Source: Breznakia blatticola (GTDB taxonomy: Bacteria > Bacillota_I > Bacilli_A > Erysipelotrichales > Erysipelotrichaceae). From it: a stretch of DNA of 29,340 bases. The stretch spans positions 1-29,340 of the forward strand of contig NZ_SODD01000034.1 in NCBI RefSeq assembly GCF_004365815.1, written 5' to 3'. Shown here piece by piece: positions 1,601 to 21,946 of this stretch. Below the pieces are notes generated by a model. That model searched no databases and was not told the origin of the DNA. It saw nothing but the letters and a program-made list of their open reading frames with translations. Positions within the stretch are counted from its first letter, which is position 1. Every line of letters starts with the position of its first letter. The position numbers and the translations under genes are program-made.

Positions 1601-4600
1601 ATGAAAAGGGAAAGAATAGACATGAGAAAGAAACTATTACCAGTATTTTTAGTGTGTCTGATGCTGTTACAAGTATCTGATACCGGGCTGCGTGTGTTAG
1701 CTGCGCAGTCAAATCGAATTACTCCAGGTGCAAGTTATGGAAGTATGTATCAAAAAGATATACAAAGAGAGATTGTTAATGTATATGATGCAAATGATGA
1801 TGCCCAGGAAGAAGCTGTAGTTACAAAGGAAGCAAGTAACTATGATTTAAGTGATCCATACGAATCGTATGAAGAGGTTGAAGACAAGCGTGAGATTAAT
1901 TCAAAAACGTATGAAATTCAAAAAGGCGTTTTCGTTAAGGAAACGTATTTTGAACCAATTCATAAAGAAGAAAATGGGAAACTAGTTGATATTGATGATC
2001 GATTAGAAAACGTAAATCGATCACGTTCAAATAAAGCAATTTATAAAAGTAAAGATGGATTGCTTGATGTACAAATTGATGGAAACAGTGTTCGTGTAAC
2101 AAATGAAGAAACAAGTGATTTGCAATGGAGTTTACCAGATGCAGATGTTTCACATTATAGTGTAAAAGAGAATGTAATTTTATTTACGAATGTATATAAA
2201 AACATCGATATGGAATATGTAATACGTTCAAATAAAGTATTTACTACGTTCTATATCAATGGACCTGTTGAAAAATCTACATTGGATTTTATTTTTACTA
2301 GTCAACATTTGACAAGTAAAGAGACAGACGATGGAGTTGTGTTTTATCGTAGTGATAATCCAGATCAAGATGTATATGTGTTTGCCAAGCCAACAATTCG
2401 AAGTGCAACAGAAGCGATTGGAAACAGTCAAATCACATATGAAAATGCACAGGATGGCGTACATGTATCATTGAGTTTAGATCAAACTTGGATTAATGAT
2501 AGTGCTCAAGTATATCCAATTGCTTTAAGCACAAGAGCGGCAAATCTTGAAGTATTGAATATTACATCTTGTTATGTGCGTAGTGAAACACCAAACTTTA
2601 GTTCAAGTCAATATAGTGATTTGTTTGTTGGATACGATAACGAGTTTTGGGCAGGTATTGGTGTACGAACTGGTGTTAACCGTTCATATTTTTACATCGA
2701 TAAACCAAATCTTGGAAACAACATGCGTGTTGAAAAGGCAAACTTAGAATTATTTAAAGAGCAAGATGGTATTGAGCAAGGTGTAAGTCACCTAATGGGA
2801 AAAAACATTGAAGCGTATGAATGTGCCAATGCAAATTTAAATACACTAACTTGGAATACCCAACCAACTATAGAGAAAAAACTATCAACAAATAATGTTG
2901 AAGGAGTTAAAAACAAATATTATAAATTTGATATTACAGGTTATGTTAGTAGTCGGTACAAAGGGATTGAAAAAACACTATTATTAAAGGCAGAAGATGA
3001 GTCAATTAACGCATTTGCGAATGTTTTTAATAGTGAAAGTACAGCAAGTCGTCCAAGAATTACGATTGAATATCGTGAAGATTATGATGTGGATCCAAAC
3101 CTTTCCATTGAAAATTTTGATCAAGAGCTACGTGTTGTTAGTAAACTAAATGATGGATTTAAAGCATTAAGTTTAGATGGTCTAATAAAACCATATGCAA
3201 CAGCTGTATTTAAATTACATGAAAAACAAGATGGTAACTCTACAGTTATTAATGAACTTCTTTCCATGAGTGTAGGAGGAGCATATTTTTCTCATCCAAT
3301 CGTATTTACAAACCCATATGGAAGTGGACATACAGTACAACCATCTTACAATGGAAATAAAGAGGGTCAAAACTATACAACAAATTATGTAAAGGCAGAA
3401 AGTATACCAAAATTTGATACTTTATACGAGTATGTTATGAAGGTTAAAAAAGATGGTGTAGAGAGTGCAAAAAGTATCACAACGGATGGATTTATCAAGT
3501 ATAAAGTTAAAAATGGAGATACATTACGTTCTATTGCTTCGTATTATGGAGTAAGTATTGATCAAATCAAACTGGATAATAATCAAAGTAGCAATAGTGT
3601 CTATGCTGGACAAGTATTATTTATCCGCTTTAAGAAAGATAATACCAAAGTACCAAAAGATGTTTATACACCACCACTACGTACGATTACGTATGAAGCT
3701 AAATATGTATATCGAGGACCACAATGTTATGGAACTTGTCCTATTGGGGATCCAATTACGACAACCAATGGAAACTTTTACTATGAAACAGAAGATTTCA
3801 CTTTAAAAGATTATGATGCATTTACTTTCCACCGTTACTACAACTCAACGGGAGAACAAGTTTCAAATATGTTTGGAAATGGGTTTACAAGTAATTTGGA
3901 ACAATATGTAACCTATGATGAAAATAAAAACATCTTATTTTTCAGAGGGGATGGGAAGATTCTTCAAATTGATAAAACCGCAAATGGATATACACCAAAA
4001 ACGACAGATCGTATTGAAATTGAAGTAAAACAAGATGAAGTTCAAATCTTTGATATTGAAACTGGAAGAACGTATGTATTTGATAGTTATGGAACACTTG
4101 TGACTATCATTGAAAAAACTGGACACAAAACGACTATTTCTTATGATGCATATGGTGCAATTCAAAGTATTCGTGTTGGTGAAAAGGAAATTAGTTTTAC
4201 CTACAATGAAAACAATTTAGTGCAAAGTATTCAATTACCAAATGGAAAAAGTGTAAGTTATACTTATGATGCAAAACGTAATTTAACATCATATACAAAT
4301 GTGTTAGGACACAAAGAAACATATAACTATGATGATAAGAATTTCATGCGTAGTATCATTGATAAAAATGGAAATACTATTGCCACAAATACCTATGATG
4401 ATGAAGGTAAAGTAAAAAGCCAAAAGGATGGAAAAGGTCAAGAAATGAAGTTTTCTTATACAAATAAGAAGACGGATATTACTCTAGCTGATAATACAAA
4501 AGTGACGTATGAACATGAAGACTTTAAAACAACGAAAGTTGCCTATGGAGATGGTTCAAGCAGTTCATATCGCTATGATACGTATGGCAATATTATTGAG

Positions 4601-7600
4601 AAAATCGATGAAGATCAAAATAAAACAACGTATACGTATGATAAACATGATTTACTTGAAATCGCATATCCAGATGGAACGACAGAAAGTTATACGTATA
4701 ATAGCGCACACCAAGTAACAAGTAAAACGGGTCGTGATGGTGGAGTAGAGTATTTTGCATATCAAGGAAATGATCTAGTAAAACATACGTTAGCAGATGG
4801 AACATTTACAACATATACGTATGATGCAAATCATCGTGTAGTAACAGAAACAAGTGCTACAGGTGCATCAAAGACATATACATATAGTGGAAATCAAATT
4901 GCCAGCATTACACATTCAAATGGTCTAGTTGAAAACTTTACGTATGATGCAAGTGGAAACGTGTTGAAAGAAAGTGATAACCAGGGTAAAAATCAAACGT
5001 ATTTGTATAACGATAATAATCAAATGATTAAGAAAACGTATACGGATGGGACTTATGAAGAGTGGGGTTATGATGGTAATGGAAACATTACAAGTTATCG
5101 TGACCGCATTGGTGGAATCACTACAAATACATATGATAAAAACAATAATGTAATTGCTAGTAAAAAAGGAAGTCTAACAAATTCGAAAGTTTATGATAGT
5201 AATAACCAGTGTATCAAAGAAACAGATGCACAAGGAATTACAAAAACATATACCTATGATGCTAAACTTAGATTAATTAAGGAAAGTGATGGCTTAGGTA
5301 ATGAAATAAGTTATACGTATGATGCCTTAGACCATGTAATTAAAACGATTGATGTACGTGGACAAGAAAGTACAGATACATATGATCAAGATTTATTAAT
5401 CAAACATGTTGATGCTGCTGGATTAGAAACGACATATAGCTATGATGATAAAAACCGTGAAATCGAAAAAGCATATACCAATGGAACCAAAGAAAGTAAA
5501 GTATATACAGGTTTACTTTTAACTGAAGAAAGCGACATTCGTGGACAAAAAACAACGTATACGTATGATGCATATAGTCGTATCAAAACAAAGACTGTGA
5601 GTATTGGTGAGATTGAACATGTAACAACATATACCTACGATAGTAATAACAATATTACAAAAGAAGATGTAGATGGTGTGGTCACAACGTATGCGTATGA
5701 TGTGTACAATCGTAAGATCAAAGAAACAGATCCATTAGGATTCACGACTTCGTATACATATAACTTTGATGATGAAATCATTTCTACAACGGATGCATTA
5801 GGAAATACATCAACACAAACGTATGATGGTGAAGGAAATCTAATTAAAGAAACCGATAAAAATGGAAATACAGTAGAACATGTTTATAATGCACAAGGAT
5901 TTCTTGTTGCTGAAAAGGATGCTCTAGGAAATACAACAACGTATGCATACAACGAAAAAGGACAATGCATTACAGTTGTTGATCCATATGGATTTACAAC
6001 ATCATTTACATATAGCAAATACAATCAATTGCTTGATACATATCAAGAAGGTACATTAATTGAAAGTATTACATACAACAAATATGGGGATGTAAAAACA
6101 AAGAAAAATACAGAACTGAATGAAAGTTATACGTATGATCATTTTGGTCGACAAGTAACAAAAACAGATCAATATACACAACTACAAACAACAACAAGCT
6201 ATGATGTGTATGGAAATGTAACTAAAGAAGAAGATAGCAATGGAAGAAGTAGTTCTTTCACTTATGATGTATATAACCAAAAATTGACTGAAATCGATGC
6301 ATATGGTCGTACAACAAGCTATACATATGACCAACTTGGACAAGTTATTTCTACAACAAATGCACAAGGAACAACAAGTCAAGTGTACGACAAAAATGGA
6401 AATGTGATTGAAAGTATTTCACCGCTTGGTGTAAGTACAACATACGCATACAACAAACGTAATGAGAAAATCAAAGAAGTCATTGGTGATAAAGAATTAG
6501 CATATAGTTATGATGGACTGGGTCAATTAACGAAGACGACAGATGTAAAACGCAAGAGTGAAACGACGACAAGTTATGATGCAAATGGAAATGTGACTAA
6601 AGAAGTGGATGCATTAGGTAATGCAATCACTTACACATACGATGCAAAAAACCAAAAAGTATCAACAACTGATGCATTAGGAAATACCAGCAAAACGGAA
6701 TATGATGCTAACGGAAATGTAACTAAGGAAATCGATGCACTAGGAAATACAAAACAAAGTTCATATAATGCATACCAACAGCTAGAAAAAGAAGTAGATG
6801 CACGTGGGTTTGAAACGCTATATAGTTATGATGATGCACTACGTTTAGTTAAGGTAGAAGATGCTATTGGTGGATCTATTACATACATATATAATGATGC
6901 AAATAAAGTCAGCAAAGAAACAAATAGTGAAGGTTTTAGTAAGACATTTGTATACGATGACTATGGTCAAATCATTGAAGAAAGTGACTATAATGGTGTC
7001 ATTACAAAACGAAGTTATGATGTACTAGGAAATGTTGTAAAAGAAACAACAGCAAATAAAACAACAACTTCTGTTTATGATGAAAAAGGAAATCATGTAA
7101 AAACAAGTGTAAATGATGTCGTGCAAGAACAATTTACCTACAATGATTACAATCAAGTTGCAACGAAAAAAGATGGAAATTCAAATGTTACAACTTACAC
7201 ATATGATACATATGGAAATGTTAGTACTGAAGATGCTGCAGGTTATAAAACAGCATATACATACAATGTATATGGAGAACTTCTTGAGAAAGTAGAAAAC
7301 GATACATACAAAGAAAGTTACGTATATGATGCAAAAAACCAACTTACTGAAACAAAGGTAAATGGTAAAACTGCACAAACAAAAACATACGATGCAAATG
7401 GGAATATAATCCAAGAAGCAGAGTATGGAAAAGTGATCGAAACACAATATGATGCATGCAATCGTCCATCTGCATATCTTGTAGAATATGAAGGAAGTAT
7501 GCAAGTAATTCAAAGTGTTACATATGATGAAAGTGGTAATGCAATTACAATTACAGATGCTAATGGTAATACAGAACAAAGAACATTTGATGCAAATGGA

Positions 7601-10273
7601 AATGAAACTAGCTTTATAAACAAGCGAGGTATCAAACAACTATTTGCTTATGATACACTTGGTCAACTAGAAAAAGCTGAAAATGCACAAGGACGTGTTG
7701 TTAGATATACGTATGATGGAAATGGAAATGCACTTACAAAAACTGTAGGAACAAAAATGGCAGTATATACATATGATGATTTCAATCAATGTACCTATGA
7801 GAAAAATGAATATGGATATGTAGAGAAAACAAAATATGATGTATTTGGTAATAAAGTTGAAGAAACAAAACCAGATGGCACAATTATTACATATGCTTAT
7901 GACAACAATAACAACCAGATTCAAAAGAATAGTCAAACCTTCAGTTATGATAAACGAAACAACCTAATTAAAGCAGAAGGTGCAAATGGCACAATCACAT
8001 ATACATATGATGCATTTGACCAAATGCTAACTTCAACAAATGCAAACAAAGAAACTGTAAGTTATGCTTACAATAAAGATAAGCAATTATCTAAAATGAC
8101 TTACGCAAATAAAGACGTCGTTACTTATAGTTATAAAGATGGTATGTTGTCTACTGTGAAAAAGAACGATGCAACAATTGCAACGTATTCATATAACAAT
8201 AGAGGTGAGCTTGTTGATCTTGTGCAAGGAAATATGCAATCAACATTTGCTTATGACAAATTAGGAAATGTAATAAAGCAAGATATCTACAAGGATAAGA
8301 AACTCGAACAAAGCCGTACGTATGCATATGATGCAAATGATAATGTCGTTAAAGAAGTTATTGATGGCAAAGAAAATAACTATGTGTATAATGATGCAGA
8401 TGAGCTAAGTGAAAGTAGTAAATATGTAGATGGAAAATTAGTTAAGACATCTTACACATACGATATGTATGGAAACAAACGTGTTTCAAGTAATGATGAA
8501 GGTGTTAAAACGTATACATATAATGATAAAAACCAATTAGAAAGTGTTGAAAGTACAAAAGGTGTAAGTCGTTACTACTACAACGATAATGGAAACCTTA
8601 CAAGTAAAGTGAATTCTGATGGTAGTAAAGAAGTGTATACATATGATGAATTTGACCATTTAGTTGAACATCAAAAAGGTGATTATATCTATACCTTTGC
8701 ATATGATGCACAAGGAGATAAAATCAGTGAAAGTAAACAAGATGTACGAACATATCAAAAACAAGTATGGTATGATTATGAAGGAGTCATCGATGTTACT
8801 GCTTCAAGTGATACAAAAGTTAAAAATACATTTGATGGACTACGCCAACAAGTAAAAACAAAAGAAGCAAATGGTGGTGTCTGTACATACCAAGGAACAA
8901 GTTCATATACTGCAAGCTACAAAAAAGATGTAGAAGTGACAGATTTCGTTCTTGATAAGAATGTAGAGTATACACAAATTCTAGAAACAAATGGAAATGG
9001 TAATGTGTATGGATTATCCATCTTGGAAGAAGATGGAACTACATTAGTAGCAAGTTTAAATGACAGTATTGCATTACAAGTAAAAAACAACAAAGTTACG
9101 AAACTAACGTACAGTGATTATGGTAAAACAAGTAATATAGCACAAAGTCATGCATACAATGGAGAGTACCAACAAGAAACAGGACTCATCTATTTACGTG
9201 CTAGATACTATGATCCAACTATCGGAAACTTTATCCAAATCGATCGCAACTACAAAGGTGAAAACACAGATGTAGCAACTCAAAACCGTTACAACTATGC
9301 ATTAAGTAATCCTTACAAGTATGTGGATAGAGATGGGAATAAAGCAAAGAAAAAGAAGAAACAAAGTGTAGTAAGTGCTGTTGTTGGTAGCGTGAAAAAT
9401 GTAGTGTCTAGTATTAAAACGAATATTGTTCAGTCGACAACGATGGTGATGCGGAGCGAAACCATGTATAATTTGATGGATTTAGTAGTACAAATTTCAC
9501 CATATTTTACTTCAGAAATGGCGAAGGTAACTACATTATTAGCAGTAACTCCGGCAACTACAATAGGTTTAGTGATGTATGGTGCTGTAGCAACTCCGGC
9601 AAGTTTGATTTGTGGTATAGAAAAAGCAATAAGATTTACTGAAATGACGCCTACGCAGCAACAAGCATATGTGAATGCTTGGGAGCATCAATTGGGTGGT
9701 AGACTGTATGCTGGTCCTTACGTAGCGGATAAAATGATGAATTTATACTACGAAAGTATGGGATATACAACAAGAATACCAGAAAAAGCACAAGTAAAAG
9801 AGGATAAAGCAATAAGCTACGTTTCTGAAAATAGTTCGACAGGATCAATGGTTGCGGCAGCACAAGAACAGCAACAACCAAAACAACCGAAAAAAGATGA
9901 TGACGATGATAAGAAGAAAGATAAAAATAAAAATTCAGATAAGGGTTCGAATAGTAATATAAAAGGGAATGATGTTACATATAATCAAAGATCTGTAGAT
10001 AAAGCTTTTGGTAAACATGGAAGTGATTTTGGTAATTACCCTGATGGAAGTAAAGGTAGTATTCAACAGTATCAAAATGATATATCAAAATTCATTGATA
10101 GTCCTAATAATATTCAAAAACCAGGAACCTGGTGGGGTTCTCAAGGAACACATATATATAATCCAACTACAAATCAATGGGTATTTATTAATGCTGATGG
10201 TACGTTTAATACAGGATTCAAGCTCTCAGCAGATCAGATGAAGTATTTAATAGAGACAGGAGTGGTAAAATAA
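1601..10273 (+). CDS. Secreted LysM-domain RHS/YD-repeat polymorphic toxin with a C-terminal colicin-D-like nuclease domain (2,890 aa)
   Basis: The more probable start is ATG 1622 (SD-like AAAGGGAAAG at 1605-1614), giving a Sec-type signal MRKKLLPVFLVCLMLLQV..RVLA|AQ. LysM-like segment at 3500-3625. Plug-like motif GDPITTTNGNFYYETEDF from ~3737, followed by dozens of YD repeats. RHS core end is YLRARYYDPTIGNFIQIDRNY..NRYNYALSNPYKYVDRDGN (9194-9340). A 310-aa variable tail follows. Confidence 0.95.
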   Translation: MKRERIDMRKKLLPVFLVCLMLLQVSDTGLRVLAAQSNRITPGASYGSMYQKDIQREIVNVYDANDDAQEEAVVTKEASNYDLSDPYESYEEVEDKREINSKTYEIQKGVFVKETYFEPIHKEENGKLVDIDDRLENVNRSRSNKAIYKSKDGLLDVQIDGNSVRVTNEETSDLQWSLPDADVSHYSVKENVILFTNVYKNIDMEYVIRSNKVFTTFYINGPVEKSTLDFIFTSQHLTSKETDDGVVFYRSDNPDQDVYVFAKPTIRSATEAIGNSQITYENAQDGVHVSLSLDQTWINDSAQVYPIALSTRAANLEVLNITSCYVRSETPNFSSSQYSDLFVGYDNEFWAGIGVRTGVNRSYFYIDKPNLGNNMRVEKANLELFKEQDGIEQGVSHLMGKNIEAYECANANLNTLTWNTQPTIEKKLSTNNVEGVKNKYYKFDITGYVSSRYKGIEKTLLLKAEDESINAFANVFNSESTASRPRITIEYREDYDVDPNLSIENFDQELRVVSKLNDGFKALSLDGLIKPYATAVFKLHEKQDGNSTVINELLSMSVGGAYFSHPIVFTNPYGSGHTVQPSYNGNKEGQNYTTNYVKAESIPKFDTLYEYVMKVKKDGVESAKSITTDGFIKYKVKNGDTLRSIASYYGVSIDQIKLDNNQSSNSVYAGQVLFIRFKKDNTKVPKDVYTPPLRTITYEAKYVYRGPQCYGTCPIGDPITTTNGNFYYETEDFTLKDYDAFTFHRYYNSTGEQVSNMFGNGFTSNLEQYVTYDENKNILFFRGDGKILQIDKTANGYTPKTTDRIEIEVKQDEVQIFDIETGRTYVFDSYGTLVTIIEKTGHKTTISYDAYGAIQSIRVGEKEISFTYNENNLVQSIQLPNGKSVSYTYDAKRNLTSYTNVLGHKETYNYDDKNFMRSIIDKNGNTIATNTYDDEGKVKSQKDGKGQEMKFSYTNKKTDITLADNTKVTYEHEDFKTTKVAYGDGSSSSYRYDTYGNIIEKIDEDQNKTTYTYDKHDLLEIAYPDGTTESYTYNSAHQVTSKTGRDGGVEYFAYQGNDLVKHTLADGTFTTYTYDANHRVVTETSATGASKTYTYSGNQIASITHSNGLVENFTYDASGNVLKESDNQGKNQTYLYNDNNQMIKKTYTDGTYEEWGYDGNGNITSYRDRIGGITTNTYDKNNNVIASKKGSLTNSKVYDSNNQCIKETDAQGITKTYTYDAKLRLIKESDGLGNEISYTYDALDHVIKTIDVRGQESTDTYDQDLLIKHVDAAGLETTYSYDDKNREIEKAYTNGTKESKVYTGLLLTEESDIRGQKTTYTYDAYSRIKTKTVSIGEIEHVTTYTYDSNNNITKEDVDGVVTTYAYDVYNRKIKETDPLGFTTSYTYNFDDEIISTTDALGNTSTQTYDGEGNLIKETDKNGNTVEHVYNAQGFLVAEKDALGNTTTYAYNEKGQCITVVDPYGFTTSFTYSKYNQLLDTYQEGTLIESITYNKYGDVKTKKNTELNESYTYDHFGRQVTKTDQYTQLQTTTSYDVYGNVTKEEDSNGRSSSFTYDVYNQKLTEIDAYGRTTSYTYDQLGQVISTTNAQGTTSQVYDKNGNVIESISPLGVSTTYAYNKRNEKIKEVIGDKELAYSYDGLGQLTKTTDVKRKSETTTSYDANGNVTKEVDALGNAITYTYDAKNQKVSTTDALGNTSKTEYDANGNVTKEIDALGNTKQSSYNAYQQLEKEVDARGFETLYSYDDALRLVKVEDAIGGSITYIYNDANKVSKETNSEGFSKTFVYDDYGQIIEESDYNGVITKRSYDVLGNVVKETTANKTTTSVYDEKGNHVKTSVNDVVQEQFTYNDYNQVATKKDGNSNVTTYTYDTYGNVSTEDAAGYKTAYTYNVYGELLEKVENDTYKESYVYDAKNQLTETKVNGKTAQTKTYDANGNIIQEAEYGKVIETQYDACNRPSAYLVEYEGSMQVIQSVTYDESGNAITITDANGNTEQRTFDANGNETSFINKRGIKQLFAYDTLGQLEKAENAQGRVVRYTYDGNGNALTKTVGTKMAVYTYDDFNQCTYEKNEYGYVEKTKYDVFGNKVEETKPDGTIITYAYDNNNNQIQKNSQTFSYDKRNNLIKAEGANGTITYTYDAFDQMLTSTNANKETVSYAYNKDKQLSKMTYANKDVVTYSYKDGMLSTVKKNDATIATYSYNNRGELVDLVQGNMQSTFAYDKLGNVIKQDIYKDKKLEQSRTYAYDANDNVVKEVIDGKENNYVYNDADELSESSKYVDGKLVKTSYTYDMYGNKRVSSNDEGVKTYTYNDKNQLESVESTKGVSRYYYNDNGNLTSKVNSDGSKEVYTYDEFDHLVEHQKGDYIYTFAYDAQGDKISESKQDVRTYQKQVWYDYEGVIDVTASSDTKVKNTFDGLRQQVKTKEANGGVCTYQGTSSYTASYKKDVEVTDFVLDKNVEYTQILETNGNGNVYGLSILEEDGTTLVASLNDSIALQVKNNKVTKLTYSDYGKTSNIAQSHAYNGEYQQETGLIYLRARYYDPTIGNFIQIDRNYKGENTDVATQNRYNYALSNPYKYVDRDGNKAKKKKKQSVVSAVVGSVKNVVSSIKTNIVQSTTMVMRSETMYNLMDLVVQISPYFTSEMAKVTTLLAVTPATTIGLVMYGAVATPASLICGIEKAIRFTEMTPTQQQAYVNAWEHQLGGRLYAGPYVADKMMNLYYESMGYTTRIPEKAQVKEDKAISYVSENSSTGSMVAAAQEQQQPKQPKKDDDDDKKKDKNKNSDKGSNSNIKGNDVTYNQRSVDKAFGKHGSDFGNYPDGSKGSIQQYQNDISKFIDSPNNIQKPGTWWGSQGTHIYNPTTNQWVFINADGTFNTGFKLSADQMKYLIETGVVK
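2560..3080 (+). other. N-terminal surface/carbohydrate-binding-like domain of the RHS protein (DNRLRE/CBM96-like, tentative)
   Basis: The segment YVRSETPNF..SDLFVGYDN....RSYFYIDKPNLG...VEKANLELF...LNTLTWNTQP...PRITIEY resembles my memory of DNRLRE-domain surface proteins. A DDRLEN motif lies at 1994-2011. Not verified by HMM. Confidence 0.35.
3500..3625 (+). other. LysM peptidoglycan-binding domain within the RHS protein
   Basis: YKVKNGDTLRSIASYYGVSIDQIKLDNNQSSNSVYAGQVLFI fits the LysM consensus (Y.V..GDTL..IA..YgvsvdqL...N.l.....l..GQ.L.I). Confidence 0.8.
3737..9340 (+). repeat. RHS shell: tandem degenerate YD repeats plus the RHS-associated core
   Basis: The unit ..(Y/F)xYDxxGNxxxxxDxxGxxxx(Y/F).. 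recurs throughout, e.g. YTYDAKRNLTSYTN, YRYDTYGNIIEKID, YTYDANHRVVTETS, TSYDANGNVTKEVDALGN. The region is terminated by the YYDPTIGNF...VDRDGN core. Confidence 0.9.
9341..9976 (+). other. Pre-toxin part of the RHS C-terminal tail: Lys-rich start, hydrophobic/helical module, low-complexity linker
   Basis: KAKKKKKQ sits directly after the predicted cleavage motif. The stretch SVVSAVVGSVKNVV...VTTLLAVTPATTIGLVMYGAVATPASLICGI (about 9527-9620) is long enough for membrane-interacting helices. The linker AAAQEQQQPKQPKKDDDDDKKKDKNKNSDKGSNSN spans about 9854-9958. Confidence 0.6.
9977..10270 (+). other. Colicin-D-like (BECR-fold tRNase type) toxin domain
   Basis: TYNQRSVDKAFGKHGSDFGNYPDGSKGSIQQYQNDISKFIDSPNNIQKPGTWWGSQGTHIYNPTTNQWVFINADGTFNTGFKLSADQMKYLIETGVVK. 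The spacing of KH..DFG, GT(W/Y).G, (Y/F).NP.T and G.F.(S/T)G(F/W)KLS..Q is what I remember for colicin D / Colicin_D-family CT domains. Needs an HMM or structure check. Confidence 0.6.
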
Positions 10274-10722
10274 TGGGAGTATATATATTGTCTGTGATGA
10301 CAAAAGAAATAGTGGAATCTACTAAAGTTTCTTTGATACAAAAAAGAATTCAATTGATATATCCTAGAAATGAAATTAATTATAGTCAATATAATTATAA
10401 TGATAGAAACCATAAAGAATTAGATTTTGATATTACTGAAATTTATTTTAATAAAGATAAAATAGATGAGGAGATTAGCTTGTTAATTAAGGCAATTAAA
10501 GAGATATTTTGCATCTTAGAATCTGATTGTGAAATTATTGGTGGTTTCAATGACACTGAAAATGCTATCATGCAATATGAGAAAGATAAAGAAAACAATT
10601 ATATGAATTGGGGGTTATTTGCGACTAAAAATCCTATCTCAAAATCAAATGTTTATTACGAAAAAGACGGGTTATATATATACCATAGTTTTAAATATGA
10701 TAGTATGGGAGTAGTTTTTTAG
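10273..10722 (+). CDS. Candidate cognate immunity protein (149 aa, no recognisable family)
   Basis: The ATG overlaps the toxin stop codon (TAATG at 10271-10275). SD AGGAG lies about 11 nt upstream, inside the toxin gene. No signal peptide or TM segment. Visibly more AT-rich than its neighbours. Position is typical of RHS immunity genes. Confidence 0.65.
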   Translation: MGVYILSVMTKEIVESTKVSLIQKRIQLIYPRNEINYSQYNYNDRNHKELDFDITEIYFNKDKIDEEISLLIKAIKEIFCILESDCEIIGGFNDTENAIMQYEKDKENNYMNWGLFATKNPISKSNVYYEKDGLYIYHSFKYDSMGVVF

Positions 10723-10879
10723 ACATATCCGATAAGGATGTAGATTAAATAAAATTCGATATTGGAGCGGAGATAGGGAATATAGTGTTAATGCATAGGA
10801 GGTATAAACGTAATAGTAATAACCTATAATACAACACGATACTAATAACTCTACTAAGTAAATATAAGCAATACGTAAT

Positions 10880-10919
10880 AAACAGTACTAACAAATTAGA
10901 CAAAGTTAGTACTGTTTTT
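10880..10919. terminator. Rho-independent terminator closing the RHS cassette, possibly bidirectional with rarA
   Basis: Perfect 13-bp stem AAACAGTACTAAC (10880-10892) / GTTAGTACTGTTT (10905-10917), 12-nt loop, then a T-run. An A-rich 5' flank would supply a U-tract on the opposite strand. Confidence 0.8.
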
Positions 10920-11039
10920 ATGTGTTATTTAATTTTACATATTGCTATAGAAAAGTGTTTAACTCCAATAAAACAAGTGTATATTTGAATTGCTGTACCA
11001 ATTATGGATATTGTTAGTTTTTTGTGTGTAATATTCGTA

Positions 11040-12293
11040 CTATCTCTTTAGTTTAGCTAAATTGTTTGTACGTTTTGTTTGTTTTAATTTTTTCCAATTT
11101 TCAGCAAGTGCACGTTCGTACTGTGAGTTAAGACTTGGTGTATAAAAAGATACGTTTTTTAGTGCGTCCGGTAAATATTGGATTTTATCCACAAGATCAA
11201 GTCTACCATAGTCATATTTGTCTTCATCTTTCATACCAACTGGGGTTAAACGTAAATAACCGGGTACTGGATATGCTTGATCTTTTAGATATGGTTTTAC
11301 TGCATCAATGGCAACTTCTGAACTTTTACTTTTTGGTGAAAGACATAAGTCAATGATTGTATGTGCCAAAGGAATGCGACCTTCAGGAAATCCAACACGT
11401 TTGGCTGCATCAATTGCATTGATACAACGAGCGACAGCTTGTGGATTACCAAAACCTACATCTTCATACGCAGTTACAAGTAAACGTCGCTCAATGGATT
11501 CTAAGTCACCAATTTCGATTAGTATCGACAAATAATATAATGCAGCATCAACATCACTTCCACGAATAGATTTTTGGAATGCACTGAGCAAGTCGTAATG
11601 ATAATCTCCATCACTGTCACTTGCAACATTTGGTGTAAAACTATAAGCTTCAACTGTTTCCTTATCAATTGCATTTGTGGCTGTTGCACACAACTCCAAT
11701 AGGTTTAATGCATAACGGATATCGCCATTAGCTAGACGTGCAATGCTAGTGAGTGCTTCATCATCTGCTTTAACTTGATCATCAATGCCTTTAGGGGAGC
11801 GTAGTGCGCGTGATAAAGCGGTCTTGATATCTTGTTCATCTAAAGATTTTACTTCAAATAGATGTGTTCTTGAACGTATGGCAGGGTTAATAGAAAATAG
11901 TGGATTGGCAGTCGTTGCTCCAATCATGATGATACTTCCATTCTCGATATGTGGAAGTAGTAAATCTTGCTTATCTTTATTTAAACGATGTACCTCATCA
12001 ACAATGACAACTAAACCTGGGAAAAACTTAGCTTCTTCAAAAATGATGGTTAAGTCTTTTTTATTTCCGGTTACAGCATTGAAGTTGCGGTATTTTACAC
12101 CCATTTCATTAGCTAATACACTTGCTAGTGTCGTCTTTCCAGTTCCAGGAGGACCATAAAAAATCATCGAAAAGAGTTGTTTCTGTTCGACCATTTTACG
12201 TAATATTTGATTCTTTCCAATTAAGTGTTGTTGCCCAACAACTTCATCTAGTGTTGTTGGACGCATACGGAAAGCGAGTGGTTGTTTATTCAT
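11040..12293 (-). CDS. rarA: Replication-associated recombination protein A (AAA+ ATPase RarA/MgsA)
   Basis: PLAFRMRPTTLDEVVGQQHLIG, Walker A GPPGTGKTT, Walker B VVIVDEVHR, and a MgsA C-terminal helical domain. 417 aa is a typical length. Confidence 0.93.
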   Translation of the reverse strand: MNKQPLAFRMRPTTLDEVVGQQHLIGKNQILRKMVEQKQLFSMIFYGPPGTGKTTLASVLANEMGVKYRNFNAVTGNKKDLTIIFEEAKFFPGLVVIVDEVHRLNKDKQDLLLPHIENGSIIMIGATTANPLFSINPAIRSRTHLFEVKSLDEQDIKTALSRALRSPKGIDDQVKADDEALTSIARLANGDIRYALNLLELCATATNAIDKETVEAYSFTPNVASDSDGDYHYDLLSAFQKSIRGSDVDAALYYLSILIEIGDLESIERRLLVTAYEDVGFGNPQAVARCINAIDAAKRVGFPEGRIPLAHTIIDLCLSPKSKSSEVAIDAVKPYLKDQAYPVPGYLRLTPVGMKDEDKYDYGRLDLVDKIQYLPDALKNVSFYTPSLNSQYERALAENWKKLKQTKRTNNLAKLKR

Positions 12294-12299
12294 ACTCTT

Positions 12300-12308
12300 A
12301 TTTTACCA
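12300..12308 (-). promoter_or_regulatory. Extended -10 element (TGgTAAAAT) immediately upstream of the rarA ATG
   Basis: Minus strand reads TGG TAAAAT aagagt ATG. The -10 ends 6 nt before the A of the start codon, and no correctly spaced SD is present. Confidence 0.4.
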
Positions 12309-12310
12309 CA

Positions 12311-12871
12311 CTAGAAAAATAAGTGCTCGATGAGTATTTTACTTCCAATAAGAATGAGAATTACTCCACCAGCAACTTCAGCATACGTATGAAGTAAAGA
12401 ACCCACAAATCGACCGATGTATCCACTAAGAAAAGATAGTGCAAATGTCACAAGTCCAATAATGATACATGCAAACAGTATATCTACTTCAAAGAAGGCG
12501 AAACTGACACCAACAGCAAGTGCGTCAATACTCGTAGCTATACCTAGTAATAAAATATCTTTTACTTTTATTTCCAGTTCACAAGATAAGTCTTGTTCAC
12601 CAAAGGCTTCATAGATCATTTTGATACCGATAAACACAAGAAGGATAAATGCAATCCAGTGATCTAAAAAGGTAATAGAGCCTGTGAAGTTTACGCCAAC
12701 AGTGTATCCAATAAGTGGCATTATTCCTTGGAAAAAGCCAAAACTAATCGCATAGACTAGTGAAAATTTAATTGCGTTTTTCTTTGTGTAACACATTCCT
12801 TTTGCTAGTGAAACTGCACATGCATCCATTGCAAGTCCAATACTGGTTAATAAAATTGTTAGTATGCTCAT
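12311..12871 (-). CDS. mntP: Manganese efflux pump MntP
   Basis: MSILTILLTSIGLAMDACAVSLAKGM, a second DALAVG motif, and 6 predicted TM helices. SD AAGGAG (12881-12886 on the complement). Confidence 0.9.
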   Translation of the reverse strand: MSILTILLTSIGLAMDACAVSLAKGMCYTKKNAIKFSLVYAISFGFFQGIMPLIGYTVGVNFTGSITFLDHWIAFILLVFIGIKMIYEAFGEQDLSCELEIKVKDILLLGIATSIDALAVGVSFAFFEVDILFACIIIGLVTFALSFLSGYIGRFVGSLLHTYAEVAGGVILILIGSKILIEHLFF

Positions 12872-12892
12872 ATGTTGTACTCCTTTATGTGA

Positions 12893-13012
12893 GAGTAAAG
12901 AAAAGACTCATACGAAAAAAATCGTATAAGTCTCATTTTTTACAATTAGCCAGGCTTTCGCCATTATGTTGACTAAAACACTTACAAAAGTAAGATAACT
13001 ACTCCCTTATGA
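12893..13012 (-). promoter_or_regulatory. yybP-ykoY (Mn2+) riboswitch with a terminator expression platform
   Basis: Minus-strand RNA reads CAUAAGGGAGUAG (core at 13008-12999) ... UAGUCAACAUAAUGGCGAAAGCCUGGC (GAAA-capped hairpin) ... terminator GAGACUUAUACGA-U7-UCGUAUGAGUCU (12934-12904) + UUUCUUU. The 5' AUAAG can pair with CUUAU in the terminator 5' arm, a P1-versus-terminator competition. It lies directly upstream of mntP, the canonical regulated gene. Confidence 0.75.
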
Positions 13013-13019
13013 CTTGCTC

Positions 13020-13047
13020 ATTATAGCACAAGGGTGTTGCTTTTGAA
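13020..13047 (-). promoter_or_regulatory. Promoter of the riboswitch-mntP unit
   Basis: Minus strand: TTCAAA (13047-13042), 16-nt spacer, TGcTATAAT (extended -10, TATAAT = 13025-13020). Confidence 0.55.
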
Positions 13048-13069
13048 AGGGGGGATTGCATGATATACT
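13043..13069 (+). promoter_or_regulatory. Candidate promoter of the oxidoreductase gene, back-to-back with the mntP promoter
   Basis: TTGAAA (13043-13048), 15-nt spacer, extended -10 TGaTATACT (13061-13069). SD AGGAGG at 13079-13084. Confidence 0.4.
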
Positions 13070-13092
13070 GTGAGTATTAGGAGGTGTAAATA

Positions 13093-14052
13093 ATGGACAC
13101 AAAATTACACTTTGGAATTGTGAGTACAGCAAGTATTGTTCCTCGCTTTGTTAAGGGGGTAAAAGCAAGTGCAAATAGTGAAGTCGTTGCAATTGCTTCC
13201 AGAGATCTACAAAAAGCACAGGAATATGCAAAAAACTTAGATATCGCAAAAGCATATGGAAGTTATGAAGCGTTGTTTCAAGATCAAGATATCAATATCA
13301 TTTACATCGCAACACCACATTTTGCACATGTTACGTATGCTAAAGCAGCATTAGAGGCAGGAAAACATGTTCTATGTGAAAAGCCAATTACTTTAACAAC
13401 TAGTGATGCAAAAGAACTTTTTGCACTGGCAAAGAAAAAAGGTTTGTTTTTAATGGAAGCGCAAAAAAGTGTGTTTCTACCGACGACGAATTATGTCAAA
13501 ACCTTGATCCAACAAAAGCGTTTGGGAAATCTGCGACATGTAAAGCTATCGTGTTTCTATCCATATATGGAAAATGAAAAAGCATGGATGCTTGATCCAA
13601 GTAAAGGTGGTGGCTCACTTTATGGGAGTGGGTCGTATGCAATTGAATATATGATGTACATATTAGATGCTACAGTCAAATCATATAAAGGAGAGCTTAC
13701 TTATACAACCTATGAGGTAGATGATATTAGTGATCTATCATTTCAAATAGGTGAGGTAGATTGTCGTTCCATTATTTCACGTACAACAAAATATCCAGAT
13801 GAAGCTAGATTTACATTTGATCAAGGCGAAGTGATTGTTCCATACTTCTGGAAAGCCCAAGAAGTGATTGTCTCTTCAAATGGTAAGATAGAAAACTATG
13901 ATTTTGCTAGTGACAGTGAATTTGTCTATGAAGTGATGCATGTAGAATCGTGCATCAATCAAGGGTTAACGTATAGTCCAATTATGACTCCAGAAATGAG
14001 TATATCGACAGTAGAAATGGTAGAACAGGTATATAAAGAGAATCGAAAATAA
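13093..14052 (+). CDS. Gfo/Idh/MocA family NAD(P)-dependent oxidoreductase
   Basis: N-terminal Rossmann segment HFGIVSTASIVPRF..., plus the family signature AGKHVLCEKP. 319 aa. Confidence 0.85.
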   Translation: MDTKLHFGIVSTASIVPRFVKGVKASANSEVVAIASRDLQKAQEYAKNLDIAKAYGSYEALFQDQDINIIYIATPHFAHVTYAKAALEAGKHVLCEKPITLTTSDAKELFALAKKKGLFLMEAQKSVFLPTTNYVKTLIQQKRLGNLRHVKLSCFYPYMENEKAWMLDPSKGGGSLYGSGSYAIEYMMYILDATVKSYKGELTYTTYEVDDISDLSFQIGEVDCRSIISRTTKYPDEARFTFDQGEVIVPYFWKAQEVIVSSNGKIENYDFASDSEFVYEVMHVESCINQGLTYSPIMTPEMSISTVEMVEQVYKENRK

Positions 14053-14101
14053 GCATGAATAAGCTATAATTTTGGGTAAATATGGGCAATCGCAAACTAG
14101 A

Positions 14102-14128
14102 TTAGCACTTCGCTTGATTAAGTGCTAA
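14102..14128 (+). promoter_or_regulatory. CIRCE element (HrcA operator)
   Basis: TTAGCACTT-N9-AAGTGCTAA is a perfect inverted repeat, against the consensus TTAGCACTC-N9-GAGTGCTAA. It overlaps the -35/spacer of the hsp20 promoter. Confidence 0.85.
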
Positions 14129-14141
14129 GCAGTGTTATAAT
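14114..14141 (+). promoter_or_regulatory. hsp20 promoter
   Basis: TTGATT (14114-14119), 16-nt spacer, TGtTATAAT (TATAAT = 14136-14141). Confidence 0.6.
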
Positions 14142-14197
14142 ACAAGTATCCTAGGAAAGGATAGTATAAATAGCATTAAGAAATGGAGGCGATGACT

Positions 14198-14611
14198 ATG
14201 AAATTACTACCAGGATTTAGTTTATTTGATGATGTGTTTGATGACAATTTCTTTAGACCTGTCAATAAGACATCAAGTTTTATGAAAACAGATATTCGTG
14301 AAGTTGATGGAAACTATGTATTGGATATGGAATTGCCAGGCTATAATAAGGAAGACATCAAAATCGCACTTAAGGATGGTTACTTGACAGTAACAGCTAC
14401 ACGCAATGATGACAAGGAAGACAAAGACGATAAAGGAAATGTAGTTCGTCGTGAACGTTTTGCAGGAACATGCACAAGAAGTTTCTATGTCTCAGATGCA
14501 GTTACTGAAGAAGACATTAAGGCCAAATATGATAATGGTGAGTTACATATAACTTTCCCAAAAGATAAACCAAAAGAAATTGCAGAAAGTAAACCAATTG
14601 CAATTGAATAA
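14198..14611 (+). CDS. hsp20: Hsp20/alpha-crystallin family small heat-shock protein
   Basis: Alpha-crystallin domain (DIREVDGNYVLDMELPGYNKEDIKIALKDGYLTVTA...RRERFAGTCTRSFYV....I.AKYDNGELHITFPK). ATG 14198 is preferred over 14183 because GGAGG (14185-14189) lies 8 nt upstream of it. Confidence 0.9.
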   Translation: MKLLPGFSLFDDVFDDNFFRPVNKTSSFMKTDIREVDGNYVLDMELPGYNKEDIKIALKDGYLTVTATRNDDKEDKDDKGNVVRRERFAGTCTRSFYVSDAVTEEDIKAKYDNGELHITFPKDKPKEIAESKPIAIE

Positions 14612-14617
14612 TGAATA

Positions 14618-14640
14618 GGGTGGACAAGTTCCACCTTTTC
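14618..14640 (+). terminator. Rho-independent terminator after hsp20
   Basis: GGGTGGA-caag-TTCCACC followed by TTTTCATTT. Confidence 0.7.
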
Positions 14641-14706
14641 ATTTGAATGCATGAAATGTATAAATACAGACAATCTATGGTATAACGTAAATAAGGATGG
14701 TGCTTT

Positions 14707-15231
14707 ATGGAAAGGTTAATAGAAACATTAAAAGAAAGATTTGAAAGTCATATGTATCGTCATCCACACACTTCGTGGAAAATGATTGAACCTTTACTTA
14801 CAGATGAAATTTTAGTAAGTTTACAAGCAATGGAAGCAAGTGGTGGTGAAATTGATGTAGTAGAAGATTTACCCAATGTAGGTTTGGCATATGTGGATAT
14901 GGTAACAGAAAGTCCAAAAGCAAGAGCAGGTGCTTGTTATGATGAAAAAGCGCGACTTGAACGAAAGAAAAATGCACCAAATACAAGCGTAGAAAAATTA
15001 GTTGATGACATGCAAGTAAACGTACTTGATGAAGATCAATATCGTTATTTACAAAGTATTGAAGATCTTGATTGCAAAACAAGTAGTTGGCTAAAAACAC
15101 CAGAAGCGATACGTGCACTTGGTGGAGCTTTATTTGGTGATAAACGTTACAATCATGTGTTTGTATATCATAATAGTGCGGATTCCTATTATTCTTCACG
15201 AGGATTTCGTACCTATAAACCACTTACATAG
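14707..15231 (+). CDS. DUF4256 family protein
   Basis: SD AGGATGGTG upstream. The C-terminal pattern KTSSWLKTPEAIRALGGALFGDKRYNHVFVYHNSADSYYSSRGFR matches my recollection of DUF4256 proteins. Function unknown. Confidence 0.65.
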   Translation: MERLIETLKERFESHMYRHPHTSWKMIEPLLTDEILVSLQAMEASGGEIDVVEDLPNVGLAYVDMVTESPKARAGACYDEKARLERKKNAPNTSVEKLVDDMQVNVLDEDQYRYLQSIEDLDCKTSSWLKTPEAIRALGGALFGDKRYNHVFVYHNSADSYYSSRGFRTYKPLT

Positions 15232-15257
15232 AAAAAGGAAGCGCGTGCTTCCTTTTT
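15232..15257. terminator. Bidirectional terminator between convergent DUF4256 and tyrA
   Basis: AAAAAGGAAGC-gcgt-GCTTCCTTTTT is a GC-rich 6-7 bp stem flanked by A5 and T5. Confidence 0.8.
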
Positions 15258-15258
15258 G

Positions 15259-16104
15259 CTATTTATCGAACTTTTTACGACGATTGGTACTTTGAATAAA
15301 CAGGTGTTTCATCGTTTCTTCATCATCGTTTTTCAATGCTTGTTTAAAGGTATCTAGGGAAGCTTCAAATGCTTCGATTTCCTCTAATAGAATATCCTTA
15401 TTGAATAAGAAGAGTTCGCTCCACATATCTTCATTGATTTTGGCGATTCTTGTTAGATCACGAAAGGAATCTCCAGTGTAATCAACCAACTTATCATGAT
15501 CGTGCGTATTCATTAAACTTACAGCAATTACATGGGTAAGTTGACTTAGAAATCCAATCATTCGATCATGCTCATCAATACTTAATAGTGAGATGTGATG
15601 AAACTTTAAGATATCAGCAACATCCATCATAGCATTGATCGCTTTTTCGCTATTGTCTACAGTTGGAACAATAATGAAGTTTGCTTGTCTGAATATCGAA
15701 GGATCTGCATGTTCAATTCCACTGACTTCTTTTCCAGCCATCGGGTGTGTTGAAATAAATTCGGCATCCACATCTTTTAAGATATATTGAATTGGCTTTA
15801 CAACATTACGCTTTACCCCTGCGATATCTGATACAATTGCACCTGGTTTAAAGTCATGCTTATGTTCTTGTATCCACTGAATCATCACTTTGGGATATAA
15901 ACATAGAATGACAATGTCAGCTTTATGTATATCGCTTGGTTGGATACTTCCTTCAGTGATGAAATTGTTCGCTAGCGCATAATCAATTGTTTCTTGACGT
16001 CTAGCAATCCCAATCACATGATATCCAGCATCATGTAGACCTTTGGCATAACTACCACCAAGTAAACCTAAACCAACAATTGCATATACAGGTTTATTTG
16101 ACAT
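15259..16104 (-). CDS. tyrA: Prephenate dehydrogenase
   Basis: NAD-binding IVGLGLLGGSYAKGL plus the HPMAG motif. ATG 16104 (MSNKPVYAIVG) is preferred, with GAGGTG upstream. It overlaps the aroA 3' end by 11 nt. The longer ORF-track start at 16125 is a GTG. Confidence 0.9.
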   Translation of the reverse strand: MSNKPVYAIVGLGLLGGSYAKGLHDAGYHVIGIARRQETIDYALANNFITEGSIQPSDIHKADIVILCLYPKVMIQWIQEHKHDFKPGAIVSDIAGVKRNVVKPIQYILKDVDAEFISTHPMAGKEVSGIEHADPSIFRQANFIIVPTVDNSEKAINAMMDVADILKFHHISLLSIDEHDRMIGFLSQLTHVIAVSLMNTHDHDKLVDYTGDSFRDLTRIAKINEDMWSELFLFNKDILLEEIEAFEASLDTFKQALKNDDEETMKHLFIQSTNRRKKFDK

Positions 16105-17365
16105 AGTGCACCTCAATGCCAACACTTGCTAGATCTTCAAAGAAGGTTGGATATGACTTATTGATGTACTCTGCTTCATCAATAATCACTTTATCTTTCA
16201 TGCAGGTTGCTGCAATCGCTAATGCCATAACAATGCGGTGATCTTTATGTCCACTTAATTGTCGTGTTGCTTCATATGGTGGATTTCCGTGAATCGTAAT
16301 CGTATCTGGTGTACTTGAATAATTAACACTGCATGCTTGAAGTTCATTTTCCATTGCAAGAATACGATCACTTTCTTTTAATCGTAAACGACCTGCATTG
16401 ATAATGGTGCTTTCTTTTTGTGTATACATTTGTAGTACATTTAATATAGGTCCTAAATCCGGACAGTTTTCTAAATTGATCGTTGCTGGAGATAGTTGTG
16501 ATTTTTTTATTTCATAGCCAAAAGGTATGGGAGTAACATCCACATGGAAATCTCTTAAGATATCAATGATTTGCTTATCTCCTTGCTTACTATCATGGGA
16601 TAATCCAGTGATTGTTAAGTCATTGTTGATGGCAGCTAAGACTGCAAAGAAACCTGCTTGTGAGTAATCACCTTCGATTGTGTAATCTGCAGCTTGGTAT
16701 GTTTGATTTCCTTTAATGTATAGCGTATATGGATCTTGATAGACAACATCAATTCCATAATGTGCAAGCATTTGAAGGGTTAAATCAACATAACTGCGAC
16801 TTTCATAAGGTGCTTGGATATGGATGGTTGAATCTTGTTTTAGTAAAGGTAAAGCAAATAGTAAGCCAGAGATGAATTGACTAGATACATCACCAGCTAA
16901 GCTATATGCACCTGGTTGTAAACTACCTTGAATACGAATACATGATGCATCTTGTGTGTAATGTAATTGTTTCTCATGAAATAGGTCTTCATATACTTTT
17001 TGTGGGCGCTTAAGTAAGCGGTTTTCACCAGTAAATGAAACATTTTTATTCGTTAGTGAGAAAATTGGAATGAAGAAGCGTAAAGTACTTCCACTTTCCT
17101 TACAAAACACATCTTGGTTATCTGCAAATGAGGCAAAGTCAATTCCACCATCAATGATAACTTGATCATCCTTTGTTTCTATATGTGCACCAAGTTGTTG
17201 CATCCCTGCAATCGTCACAAGAATATCATCAGAAAATGCAACATTCGAAATGATGCTTCTTCCTTTAGCTAAACTTGCACAAATAATTGCACGGTGTGAC
17301 ATACTTTTTGAAGGTGGGAGATGTACACTTCCAGAACATTTGGAAGGTGTAATTTCTACTTTCAT
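16094..17365 (-). CDS. aroA: 3-phosphoshikimate 1-carboxyvinyltransferase (EPSP synthase)
   Basis: LPPSKSMSHRAIICASLA, RPQKVYEDL.., DHRIVMALAIAA. 423 aa. Its ATG overlaps the aroF stop codon (TAATG). Confidence 0.95.
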   Translation of the reverse strand: MKVEITPSKCSGSVHLPPSKSMSHRAIICASLAKGRSIISNVAFSDDILVTIAGMQQLGAHIETKDDQVIIDGGIDFASFADNQDVFCKESGSTLRFFIPIFSLTNKNVSFTGENRLLKRPQKVYEDLFHEKQLHYTQDASCIRIQGSLQPGAYSLAGDVSSQFISGLLFALPLLKQDSTIHIQAPYESRSYVDLTLQMLAHYGIDVVYQDPYTLYIKGNQTYQAADYTIEGDYSQAGFFAVLAAINNDLTITGLSHDSKQGDKQIIDILRDFHVDVTPIPFGYEIKKSQLSPATINLENCPDLGPILNVLQMYTQKESTIINAGRLRLKESDRILAMENELQACSVNYSSTPDTITIHGNPPYEATRQLSGHKDHRIVMALAIAATCMKDKVIIDEAEYINKSYPTFFEDLASVGIEVHYVK

Positions 17366-18384: not shown

Positions 18385-18397
18385 TTGTTTTGTCCCC

Positions 18398-21768: not shown

Positions 21769-21786
21769 AAAAAACTCTCCTTTAAT

Positions 21787-21828: not shown

Positions 21829-21872
21829 AAACATGAATAAATAACCAATACATTGTATTAGTTTGTTTGGCT

Positions 21873-21911: not shown

Positions 21912-21917
21912 GCGTAC

Positions 21918-21946
21918 ATTGTAATACGATATATTTCGTTTTGCAA
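21918..21946 (-). promoter_or_regulatory. aro operon promoter
   Basis: Minus strand: TTGCAA (21946-21941), 17-nt spacer, TACAAT (21923-21918). Confidence 0.6.

Follow-up and report, generated by a model that had tools for sequence, protein, structure and literature searches.

The closest described counterparts of the toxin reported here are WapA of Streptococcus suis, the CdiA-CT fragments, the ABP toxins and colicin D. The toxin is an RHS/YD-repeat polymorphic toxin of 2890 amino acids (aa), encoded by the open reading frame (ORF) at 1601..10273 on the forward strand of a 29,340-nucleotide (nt) stretch of DNA of the cockroach-gut bacterium Breznakia blatticola (Erysipelotrichaceae; contig NZ_SODD01000034.1, hereafter the window). 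Its last 310 aa, the tail (9341-10270), are best explained as the two-part cargo of a Sec-exported, wall-binding WapA-type RHS toxin. The last ~104 aa of the tail were assigned, on solid evidence from sequence searches and structure prediction, to the colicin D-family RNases of the BECR fold. The part ahead of the linker, tail aa 1 to ~175/176, is called the N-module. It may act as a membrane-entry aid for the nuclease, a tentative reading by analogy that is held at a little under even confidence.

The layout, with a predicted signal peptide and a predicted self-cleavage site, is shared with WapA-CT1 of S. suis, which has a signal peptide, LysM, DUF6531 and a long RHS region and releases a pre-toxin (PreT) joined to a toxin; its cleavage site was placed directly after the equivalent core motif by Edman sequencing (PMC12704120). 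PreT has a PT-TG motif, to which the N-module has no match, and the toxin domains differ. S. suis WapA also differs in its second internal Rhs core, none of which was found in the window RHS protein, and in its SecF-like or SrtB gene family, none of which was seen upstream of the window RHS gene by Pfam scan. The 2025 S. suis study called the import of WapA-type toxins across the target membrane enigmatic (PMC12704120).

The released CdiA-CT fragment joins a helical part at its N-terminus to a small nuclease at its C-terminus, and a precise proteolytic cut makes its active N-terminus (PMC9424206); the same is predicted for the tail. CdiA-CT entry domains are helical, are activated by this cleavage and depend on the proton gradient (PMC9424206), and some exploit SecY (PMC7858069). 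Unlike the protein described here, CdiA has a filamentous haemagglutinin-type scaffold; the scaffold here is RHS and the target is monoderm, with no outer membrane or periplasm.

The ABP toxins (AbpT/AbpP/AbpI) are Sec-secreted Gram-positive toxins with cytoplasmic immunity, and their entry requires an amphipathic helix exposed by cleavage (PMC12582261, PMC13460014). In these toxins, proteolysis exposes a cationic amphipathic helix just before a BECR nuclease, ColD-like ones included, and a similar exposure is predicted for the tail. The ABP alpha-helix joined to its toxin kills from outside in a proton-motive-force-dependent manner, whereas the toxin alone does not (PMC12582261). ABP toxins have a single helix and a mean toxin isoelectric point (pI) of ~10.2, in contrast to the ~175-aa module with a hydrophobic segment, the pI of 7.9 and the predicted intramolecular cleavage found here. 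Pfam scans of the RHS ORF and its flanks revealed neither the BetaH domain nor the adjacent secreted serine protease that are ABP hallmarks.

RHS protein and tail layout

From its N-terminus, the RHS ORF encodes a signal-peptide-like start (MKRERIDMRKK followed by a hydrophobic core, with a Kyte-Doolittle hydropathy (KD) peak of 1.89), CBM96 (aa 325-490), LysM (aa 634-675), DUF6531 (aa 716-788), 23 RHS-repeat stretches (PF05593, E 1.1e-165; TIGR01643 also matches), the Rhs-associated core and the tail. The core (9110..9340, forward strand) matches TIGR03696 with 54.8 bits (cutoff 32.5; match end at nt 9337) and is a putative aspartyl self-cleavage module. Its translation ends at nt 9340 in ...NPYKYVDRDGN, in which VDRDGN is a variant of canonical DPxGL with Arg for Pro and Asn for Leu. 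Core residues D43, D71, D73, G74 and N75 (alignment A5) are invariant in nine clade members, and the tails of relatives diverge directly past the core motif. By homology, cleavage would fall after N2580 of VDRDGN and create the new N-terminus KAKKKKK. Sec export and enclosure of the tail in the RHS shell are likewise expected from homologous proteins.

The motif PITTTNGNFYY is found at the start of DUF6531 (RHS aa 718-728, window 3752-3784). It resembles the mapped N-terminal cleavage site of S. suis WapA, PINLNTGNF, so the wall-binding LysM/CBM96 part may also be cut off.

All tail features lie on the forward strand, and each element quoted in the original prediction, made from the sequence alone, was recovered in the translation at its given position. 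The tail starts with polybasic KAKKKKKQ (9341..9364, tail aa 1-8, net charge +6) and a V/S/K-rich amphipathic leader helix, SVVSAVVGSVKNVVSSIKTNIVQST (9365..9439, aa 9-33). A moderately hydrophobic segment (9521..9625, aa 61-95) has two prolines, many threonines and two or three short predicted helices, and includes a 31-aa run without charged residues, VTTLLAVTPATTIGLVMYGAVATPASLICGI (9527-9619, aa 63-93). It is followed by a soluble, aromatic-rich helical part of the N-module (9626..9757, aa 96-139) and by a region of predicted disorder (9758..9958, aa 140-206), the last part of which is the K/D/N/Q low-complexity linker QQQPKQPKKDDDDDKKKDKNKNSDKGSNSN (9869-9958, aa 177-206). The nuclease cassette (9959..10270, aa 207-310) has the motifs KHGSDFG at aa 225, GTWWG at 262, IYNPTT at 272 and GTFNTGFKLSADQ at 287.

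Tail aa 140-206 have a predicted local distance difference test score (pLDDT) of 25-47 in both AlphaFold2 (AF2) models and almost no structure by DSSP, apart from a 3-residue helix (aa 147-149) in one model. This agrees with the predicted bipartite tail in which a low-complexity linker separates two parts. Short DNA repeats occur within the linker at 9873-9892 and 9909-9934. The original prediction called the tail much longer than a bare nuclease; 310 aa is long but falls within the range of its sister tails (173-428 aa). The GC profile gives no clear cassette boundary, with the low-GC immunity gene as the one exception. A 1.8-kb contig of another sequencing run (L001) is 100% identical over the covered tail (from nt 9370) and the whole immunity gene, and is therefore uninformative on selection.

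Colicin D-family nuclease

Tail aa 220-302 match PF11429 (Colicin_D) with 44.7 bits when the tail is searched and 47.8 bits when the domain is searched alone (cutoff 25). Colicin D chains were the only significant hits in a phmmer search of the PDB (1v74 at E 6.6e-6, then 1tfo, 1tfk and 5znm, to 7e-5). An AF2 model built with seven homologues has a pLDDT of 89-97 for aa 211-310 and 73 for aa 201-210. Foldseek aligned it to 1tfo, 1v74 and 1tfk with template modelling scores of 0.71-0.81, root-mean-square deviations of 2.1-2.4 A and a probability of 1.00; the next matches after colicin D were the CdiA-CT tRNases 8ey4 and 6d7y. The original prediction had read the last ~100 aa as a colicin D/BECR RNase, and the Pfam, PDB sequence and structure searches all point to that family.

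The putative catalytic pair K225-H226 (codons at nt 10013-10018) is conserved. Tail residues K221, K225, H226, D229 and T291 align with colicin D K607, K610, H611, D614 and S677. Residues K607, K608, H611, D614 and S677 are listed as essential in colicin D (Zhang et al. 2012, PMC3482391). Four of these five are retained (K607, H611, D614 and, as Thr, S677), whereas the tail and all seven close homologues have Ala in place of K608; K610 is retained. Unlike colicin D, to which its identity is only 25-27%, the protein has no receptor or translocation domains. The nuclease part has a pI of 7.9 and a net charge of +1.

Tox-ColD of Firmicutes polymorphic toxins was already catalogued in 2012 (PMC3482391). 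The ColD-like domain of an ABP toxin is reported as a non-specific RNase (PMC13460014), and tRNA-Arg specificity therefore cannot be assumed for the tail.

Cassette mobility and immunity gene

Seven proteins (P0001-P0007) match tail aa 207-310 at 62-74% identity. The homology begins at 'IKGND', directly past the low-complexity linker. In P0005 the ColD cassette stands behind a PT-HINT domain and a short linker. In P0004 it belongs to the orphan cassettes of an LXG (type VII) array and follows the last part of a PT-TG region; the pre-toxin region of the LXG array has a KD peak of 1.2. Both contexts lack the N-module, which therefore belongs with the RHS scaffold rather than with the enzyme. The nuclease and immunity genes also occur together without it, so the module is unneeded for nuclease folding, activity or immunity.

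The LXG locus (L002:5835-14112) is a long orphan toxin/immunity array with TNT/Imm59 (twice), Fic, ColD, EndoU and YxiG. The PT-TG remnant on its ColD orphan is probably a recombination handle.

The gene directly downstream of the toxin (10273..10722, forward strand) encodes 149 aa, with a start codon that shares 1 nt with the toxin stop (TAATG). The ORF is 28-29% identical to the genes just after two other ColD cassettes (L002:10495-10929 and L004:483-923). The family members are 144-149 aa long with 24 invariant positions, and their GC content is unusually low (0.24-0.26). The product, annotated as a hypothetical protein, is soluble (maximum KD 1.24). It has no Pfam, NCBIfam or credible PDB match. 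Its profile does not hit the PDB chains of ImmD, and Pfam and PDB searches indicate no relationship to this immunity protein of colicin D. As the family travels with the ColD cassette in three contexts, 10273..10722 behaves as the cognate immunity gene. Judged from sequence, it apparently belongs to an undescribed colicin D immunity family.

A terminator-like hairpin with a U-run (10872..10924, forward strand) closes the toxin-immunity operon and is located between the convergent immunity and mgsA genes. It has a 13-bp perfect match within a 20-bp predicted stem and a 12-nt loop. Its fold of -20.6 kcal/mol (z = -5.17) was matched in stability by 0 of 200 shuffles. The pattern-based terminator scan missed the hairpin because of its 12-nt loop.

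Composition and predicted structure of the N-module

KD values of at least 1.0 over 19 aa occur at only three places in the 2890 aa: the signal peptide (1.89), tail aa 9-27 (1.02) and tail aa 60-97 (1.77). The N-module is thus the only hydrophobic or amphipathic part besides the signal peptide, and it is located between the cleavage site and the toxin. Shuffles of its own composition reach a KD of 1.77 in 12.6% of cases, so the composition is unusual rather than the clustering of residues. Insertion was estimated as a simple sum on the Hessa scale, which gives the free energy of helix insertion into a membrane. The run sums to +3.07 kcal/mol, versus -1.0 and -0.2 for the corresponding segments of sister proteins P0008 and P0018. 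The run that the original prediction called long enough to insert in a membrane is present, with 31 uncharged residues and a KD of 1.77, but at +3.1 it is below the level expected of a stable transmembrane helix. At this weakness the run should pass the Sec channel and not arrest there. It is amphiphilic enough for membrane activity.

A KD of 1.77 over 19 aa slightly exceeds the classical threshold of 1.6, and the immunity protein is cytoplasmic. Both would suit a stop-transfer anchor, with the run halting Sec export, the RHS protein tethered to the producer membrane and the nuclease in the producer cytoplasm. Such an anchor is very improbable. The Hessa sum is +3.1 kcal/mol, the run has two prolines and many threonines, and the positive charges are on the wrong (N-terminal) side. 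An anchor would also be incompatible with the tail enclosure and self-cleavage in the shell that are described for other RHS proteins (PMC12704120, PMC8636562).

The N-module might instead be a second warhead that itself depolarizes membranes or forms pores, which would make the tail a dual toxin. RHS shells can carry hydrophobic pore-forming cargo, of which Tse5 is a reported example (PMC10684867), and residues A/G/S/T/V make up 46% of the N-module (aa 1-176), which also has the 31-aa uncharged run. A dual toxin is nevertheless quite improbable. The only immunity gene encodes a soluble protein that travels with ColD, and up to the convergent mgsA there is no gene for a membrane immunity protein. 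Hydrophobicity is marginal and no repeated GxxxG glycine zipper was seen by eye; a Hessa sum of +3.1 and a soluble immunity protein are not those of a pore-forming toxin.

The leader helix has a hydrophobic moment of 0.37-0.43 (18-aa windows) and is helical in both AF2 runs (pLDDT 50-63). It has 11 of 23 identities at the same offset with 'NVVNKVVKTVKKVVSSVVKVITN' of L012, a low-complexity match. In the full-tail model the N-module has six helices, mostly with pLDDT below 60. Those around the hydrophobic segment span aa 39-67, 71-81 and 86-101 (pLDDT <60), and those of the aromatic-rich part span aa 86-101, 104-118 and 125-139, with the best pLDDT (70-76) at about aa 91-110.

The diphtheria toxin T domain and the colicin pore domain are helical insertion domains that bury a hydrophobic hairpin. 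A functional analogy may be drawn with the N-module, which is predicted to be an all-helical module of ~140 aa with amphipathic helices flanking a hydrophobic pair and a flexible linker to the enzyme. The N-module gave no sequence or structure match to them, and a bundle cannot be made out in the AF2 model at its low confidence.

Searches with the N-module found no homologue among 5.8 billion clustered proteins (word-indexed search), 1.84 billion representatives (exhaustive phmmer), genome and metagenome contigs (peptide-pattern scans) or plasmids (tblastn). The absence from the representatives counts for less than it seems, because a 50%-identity representative of this long protein may carry a different tail. 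With no homologue found at all, no fusion of the N-module to other toxin domains was found either. It has no Pfam or NCBIfam match up to E = 10 and no PDB sequence match; in Pfam (E <= 10), the PDB and structure searches, nothing was recovered from CdiA-CT entry domains or colicin (pyocin S) translocation domains. The PT-TG HMM (PF14449) gave no match in the N-module, versus 42.3 bits for the LXG toxin of L002 in the same run. Among 69 + 35 sister RHS tails, phmmer and blastp found nothing significant.

The tail of P0008 is co-linear with the N-module at 22% identity. The pairwise E was 0.006, but it was 0.96 in the 69-sequence database, and homology is not claimed. A joint alignment of the N-module with P0008 and P0018 (A3) was mis-aligned and was not used.

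Sister RHS tails

Sister proteins were found through the conserved core end, in Breznakia, in other Erysipelotrichales and then in wider Firmicutes. The survey comprised 94 distinct tails of at least 120 aa, 24 from the close clade and 70 others. A KD >= 1.6 segment located at least 90 aa before the C-terminus was found in 26 of the 94 tails (10/24 close-clade and 16/70 other). The start KAKK(K/P)K is common to P0012, P0015, P0018/L007 and L011, with divergence right after it. In P0018/L007 the order is basic start, amphipathic stretch, hydrophobic segment and Tox-PL-2. P0008 has the same order, then a K/D/N linker and an unassigned toxin; linkers similar to that of the tail are found in P0008, P0011 and P0021. 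The sister layout is thus a cationic or amphipathic start, a hydrophobic segment, a low-complexity linker and an enzyme, which may be Tox-PL-2, Colicin_E5, GIY-YIG, AHH, HNH, Ntox17 or Tox-REase-7. A hydrophobic module, a linker and a cytoplasm-acting enzyme form a recurrent layout assembled from non-homologous parts. The small survey suggests that such segments ahead of the toxin are frequent among RHS tails of Firmicutes and precede many nuclease types.

Five Erysipelotrichales loci (L009, L012, L014, L015 and L018; alignment A6) share a conserved hydrophobic module, 'KCP..LD..GFIPF.GDICD..NAVIYF.RG...SIAC.ALP..ADS.LKPLKWVAKSA.EF'. It is followed by GIY-YIG, Colicin_E5 or unassigned domains, so that one module precedes different toxins. 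The module is absent from Pfam. It resembles PT-TG, but the PT-TG HMM gives no match. It is unrelated to the N-module by hhalign (probability 0.14%). Further Firmicutes tails have a membrane-grade helix right after the cleavage motif (L026, L028, L036, L046, L055, L064, L081, L009, L017 and others) and end in HNH, AHH, Ntox17, Tox-REase-7 or M23.

In three sister tails (P0010, P0016 and P0017) the final segments are strongly hydrophobic and membrane-toxin-like. They lend some weight to the view that the N-module is a leftover, the remnant of an earlier and possibly membrane-active toxin that was kept as filler when the ColD cassette recombined behind the linker. The cassette homology boundary exactly after the linker would fit, as would an orphan sequence in which there is no conservation to measure. 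We consider a leftover improbable. The 206-aa frame is open, its helical amphipathicity is non-random, and the sequence is 100% identical in the second sample, although that sample is too close to inform. Where RHS tip replacement is known, displaced tips are found downstream rather than upstream, which also counts against a leftover.

A packaging or encapsulation aid is the main rival. The N-module would then contact the shell wall, keep the nuclease unfolded or inactive and position it for release, with no role at the target membrane. This is the role given to PreT, the N-terminal part of the ~50 kDa S. suis WapA fragment (PMC12704120). It is the RHS scaffold, not the nuclease, that the module accompanies, and a polybasic start common to sisters that diverge after it is expected of a scaffold-contacting junction. 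Hydrophobic or amphipathic helices are not obviously required for packaging, however. The sister modules are non-homologous and share hydrophobicity rather than sequence, and many RHS tails of similar size have no such segment. Packaging is judged less likely than entry.

Proposed membrane entry

In the favoured reading, entry of the nuclease aided by the N-module, the signal peptide would export the protein and the RHS shell would fold around the 310-aa tail. By homology, the core would then cut after N2580 to give a cargo that starts KAKKKKK. Released at a neighbouring cell, this cargo would bind the anionic envelope through its polybasic end and its V/S/K amphipathic helix, and the moderately hydrophobic helical segment of aa 61-95 would insert into the cytoplasmic membrane. 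The 65-aa disordered linker would let the nuclease follow, helped by the membrane potential or a membrane protein. The RNase, whose domain assignment is well supported, may cut tRNA or another RNA with K221, K225, H226, D229 and T291. The translationally coupled 149-aa immunity protein would protect siblings, as its conserved linkage suggests.

Several points speak for entry besides the position of the N-module. The hydrophobic run falls short of what would arrest Sec export yet has membrane-active amphiphilicity. Tails with a hydrophobic segment are not enriched for membrane-type immunity genes; a membrane-grade segment occurs in the downstream ORF of 5 of 20 tails with such a segment versus 21 of 50 without. 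The ColD cassette also stands in PT-HINT and LXG contexts that lack the module, and sister tails repeat the layout with other nucleases. CdiA-CT entry domains and the ABP amphipathic helix are experimental precedents for such a role, although the N-module is homologous to neither.

Other points weigh against it. The run is only marginally membrane-grade and below the level of a stable transmembrane helix. The ColD domain is near neutral (pI 7.9) compared with the ABP toxin domains (pI ~10). The corresponding region of the S. suis toxin, PreT, has been interpreted as an encapsulation aid (PMC12704120). Modelled alone from a 3-sequence alignment, the N-module has a pLDDT of 42, and Foldseek returned only matches with E > 2 to generic helical bundles, which were discarded; the structure search proposed in the original prediction thus gave no confident fold and no credible match. 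With no homologue, the modularity of this module is not demonstrable, and its resemblance to the non-homologous sister modules is architectural only. The survey is crude, with a small sample, kinship ignored, simple ORF calling, and monoderm tails with no diderm control.

More broadly, the N-module could be one of a wide, undescribed class of fast-evolving, mutually non-homologous and possibly receptor-free membrane-active entry modules of monoderm RHS/WapA proteins, placed between the self-cleavage site and the toxin. We regard this extension as doubtful. If it holds, it would explain the import of WapA-type toxins that has been called enigmatic. If the modules do serve entry, they would offer a portable means of bringing proteins into Gram-positive cells. 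The locus is a compact test case, with a colicin D-type nuclease and its own immunity gene, a cassette that naturally occurs without the module in LXG contexts, and an RHS-specific module of 175 aa that is cationic, hydrophobic and predicted to be helical. The yield today is smaller: a correct toxin annotation, a new immunity family and two unannotated pre-toxin modules.

The original prediction held this organization to be uncharacterized for Sec-secreted Gram-positive RHS toxins. That is too broad for the layout, as PreT-CT is known in S. suis WapA (PMC12704120), and apt for the orphan module, which is new. Two-part RHS fragments (S. suis), Tox-ColD in Firmicutes polymorphic toxins and cleavage-exposed helices (ABP) are already known. 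The immunity family and the unannotated 'KCP/GDICD' module are new, as are the signs of a wide distribution of hydrophobic pre-toxin segments among RHS tails of monoderms.

Neighbouring genes

A 151-aa ORF with a TTG start is located upstream of the RHS gene (1134-1589, forward strand). Its product has the run VVVVLLLLLLLLLLQQC and then a charged stretch that is probably helical, and Pfam gave no match. This could be a small lipoprotein or a membrane protein with a link to the RHS gene; alternatively, the ORF may not be a real gene. No further toxin or orphan cassette adjoining the RHS gene was found at 11040-29340. This region encodes housekeeping functions, namely MgsA, MntP, a GFO/IDH/MocA oxidoreductase, HSP20, DUF4256 and an aromatic amino-acid cluster (prephenate dehydrogenase, EPSP synthase and DAHP synthase).

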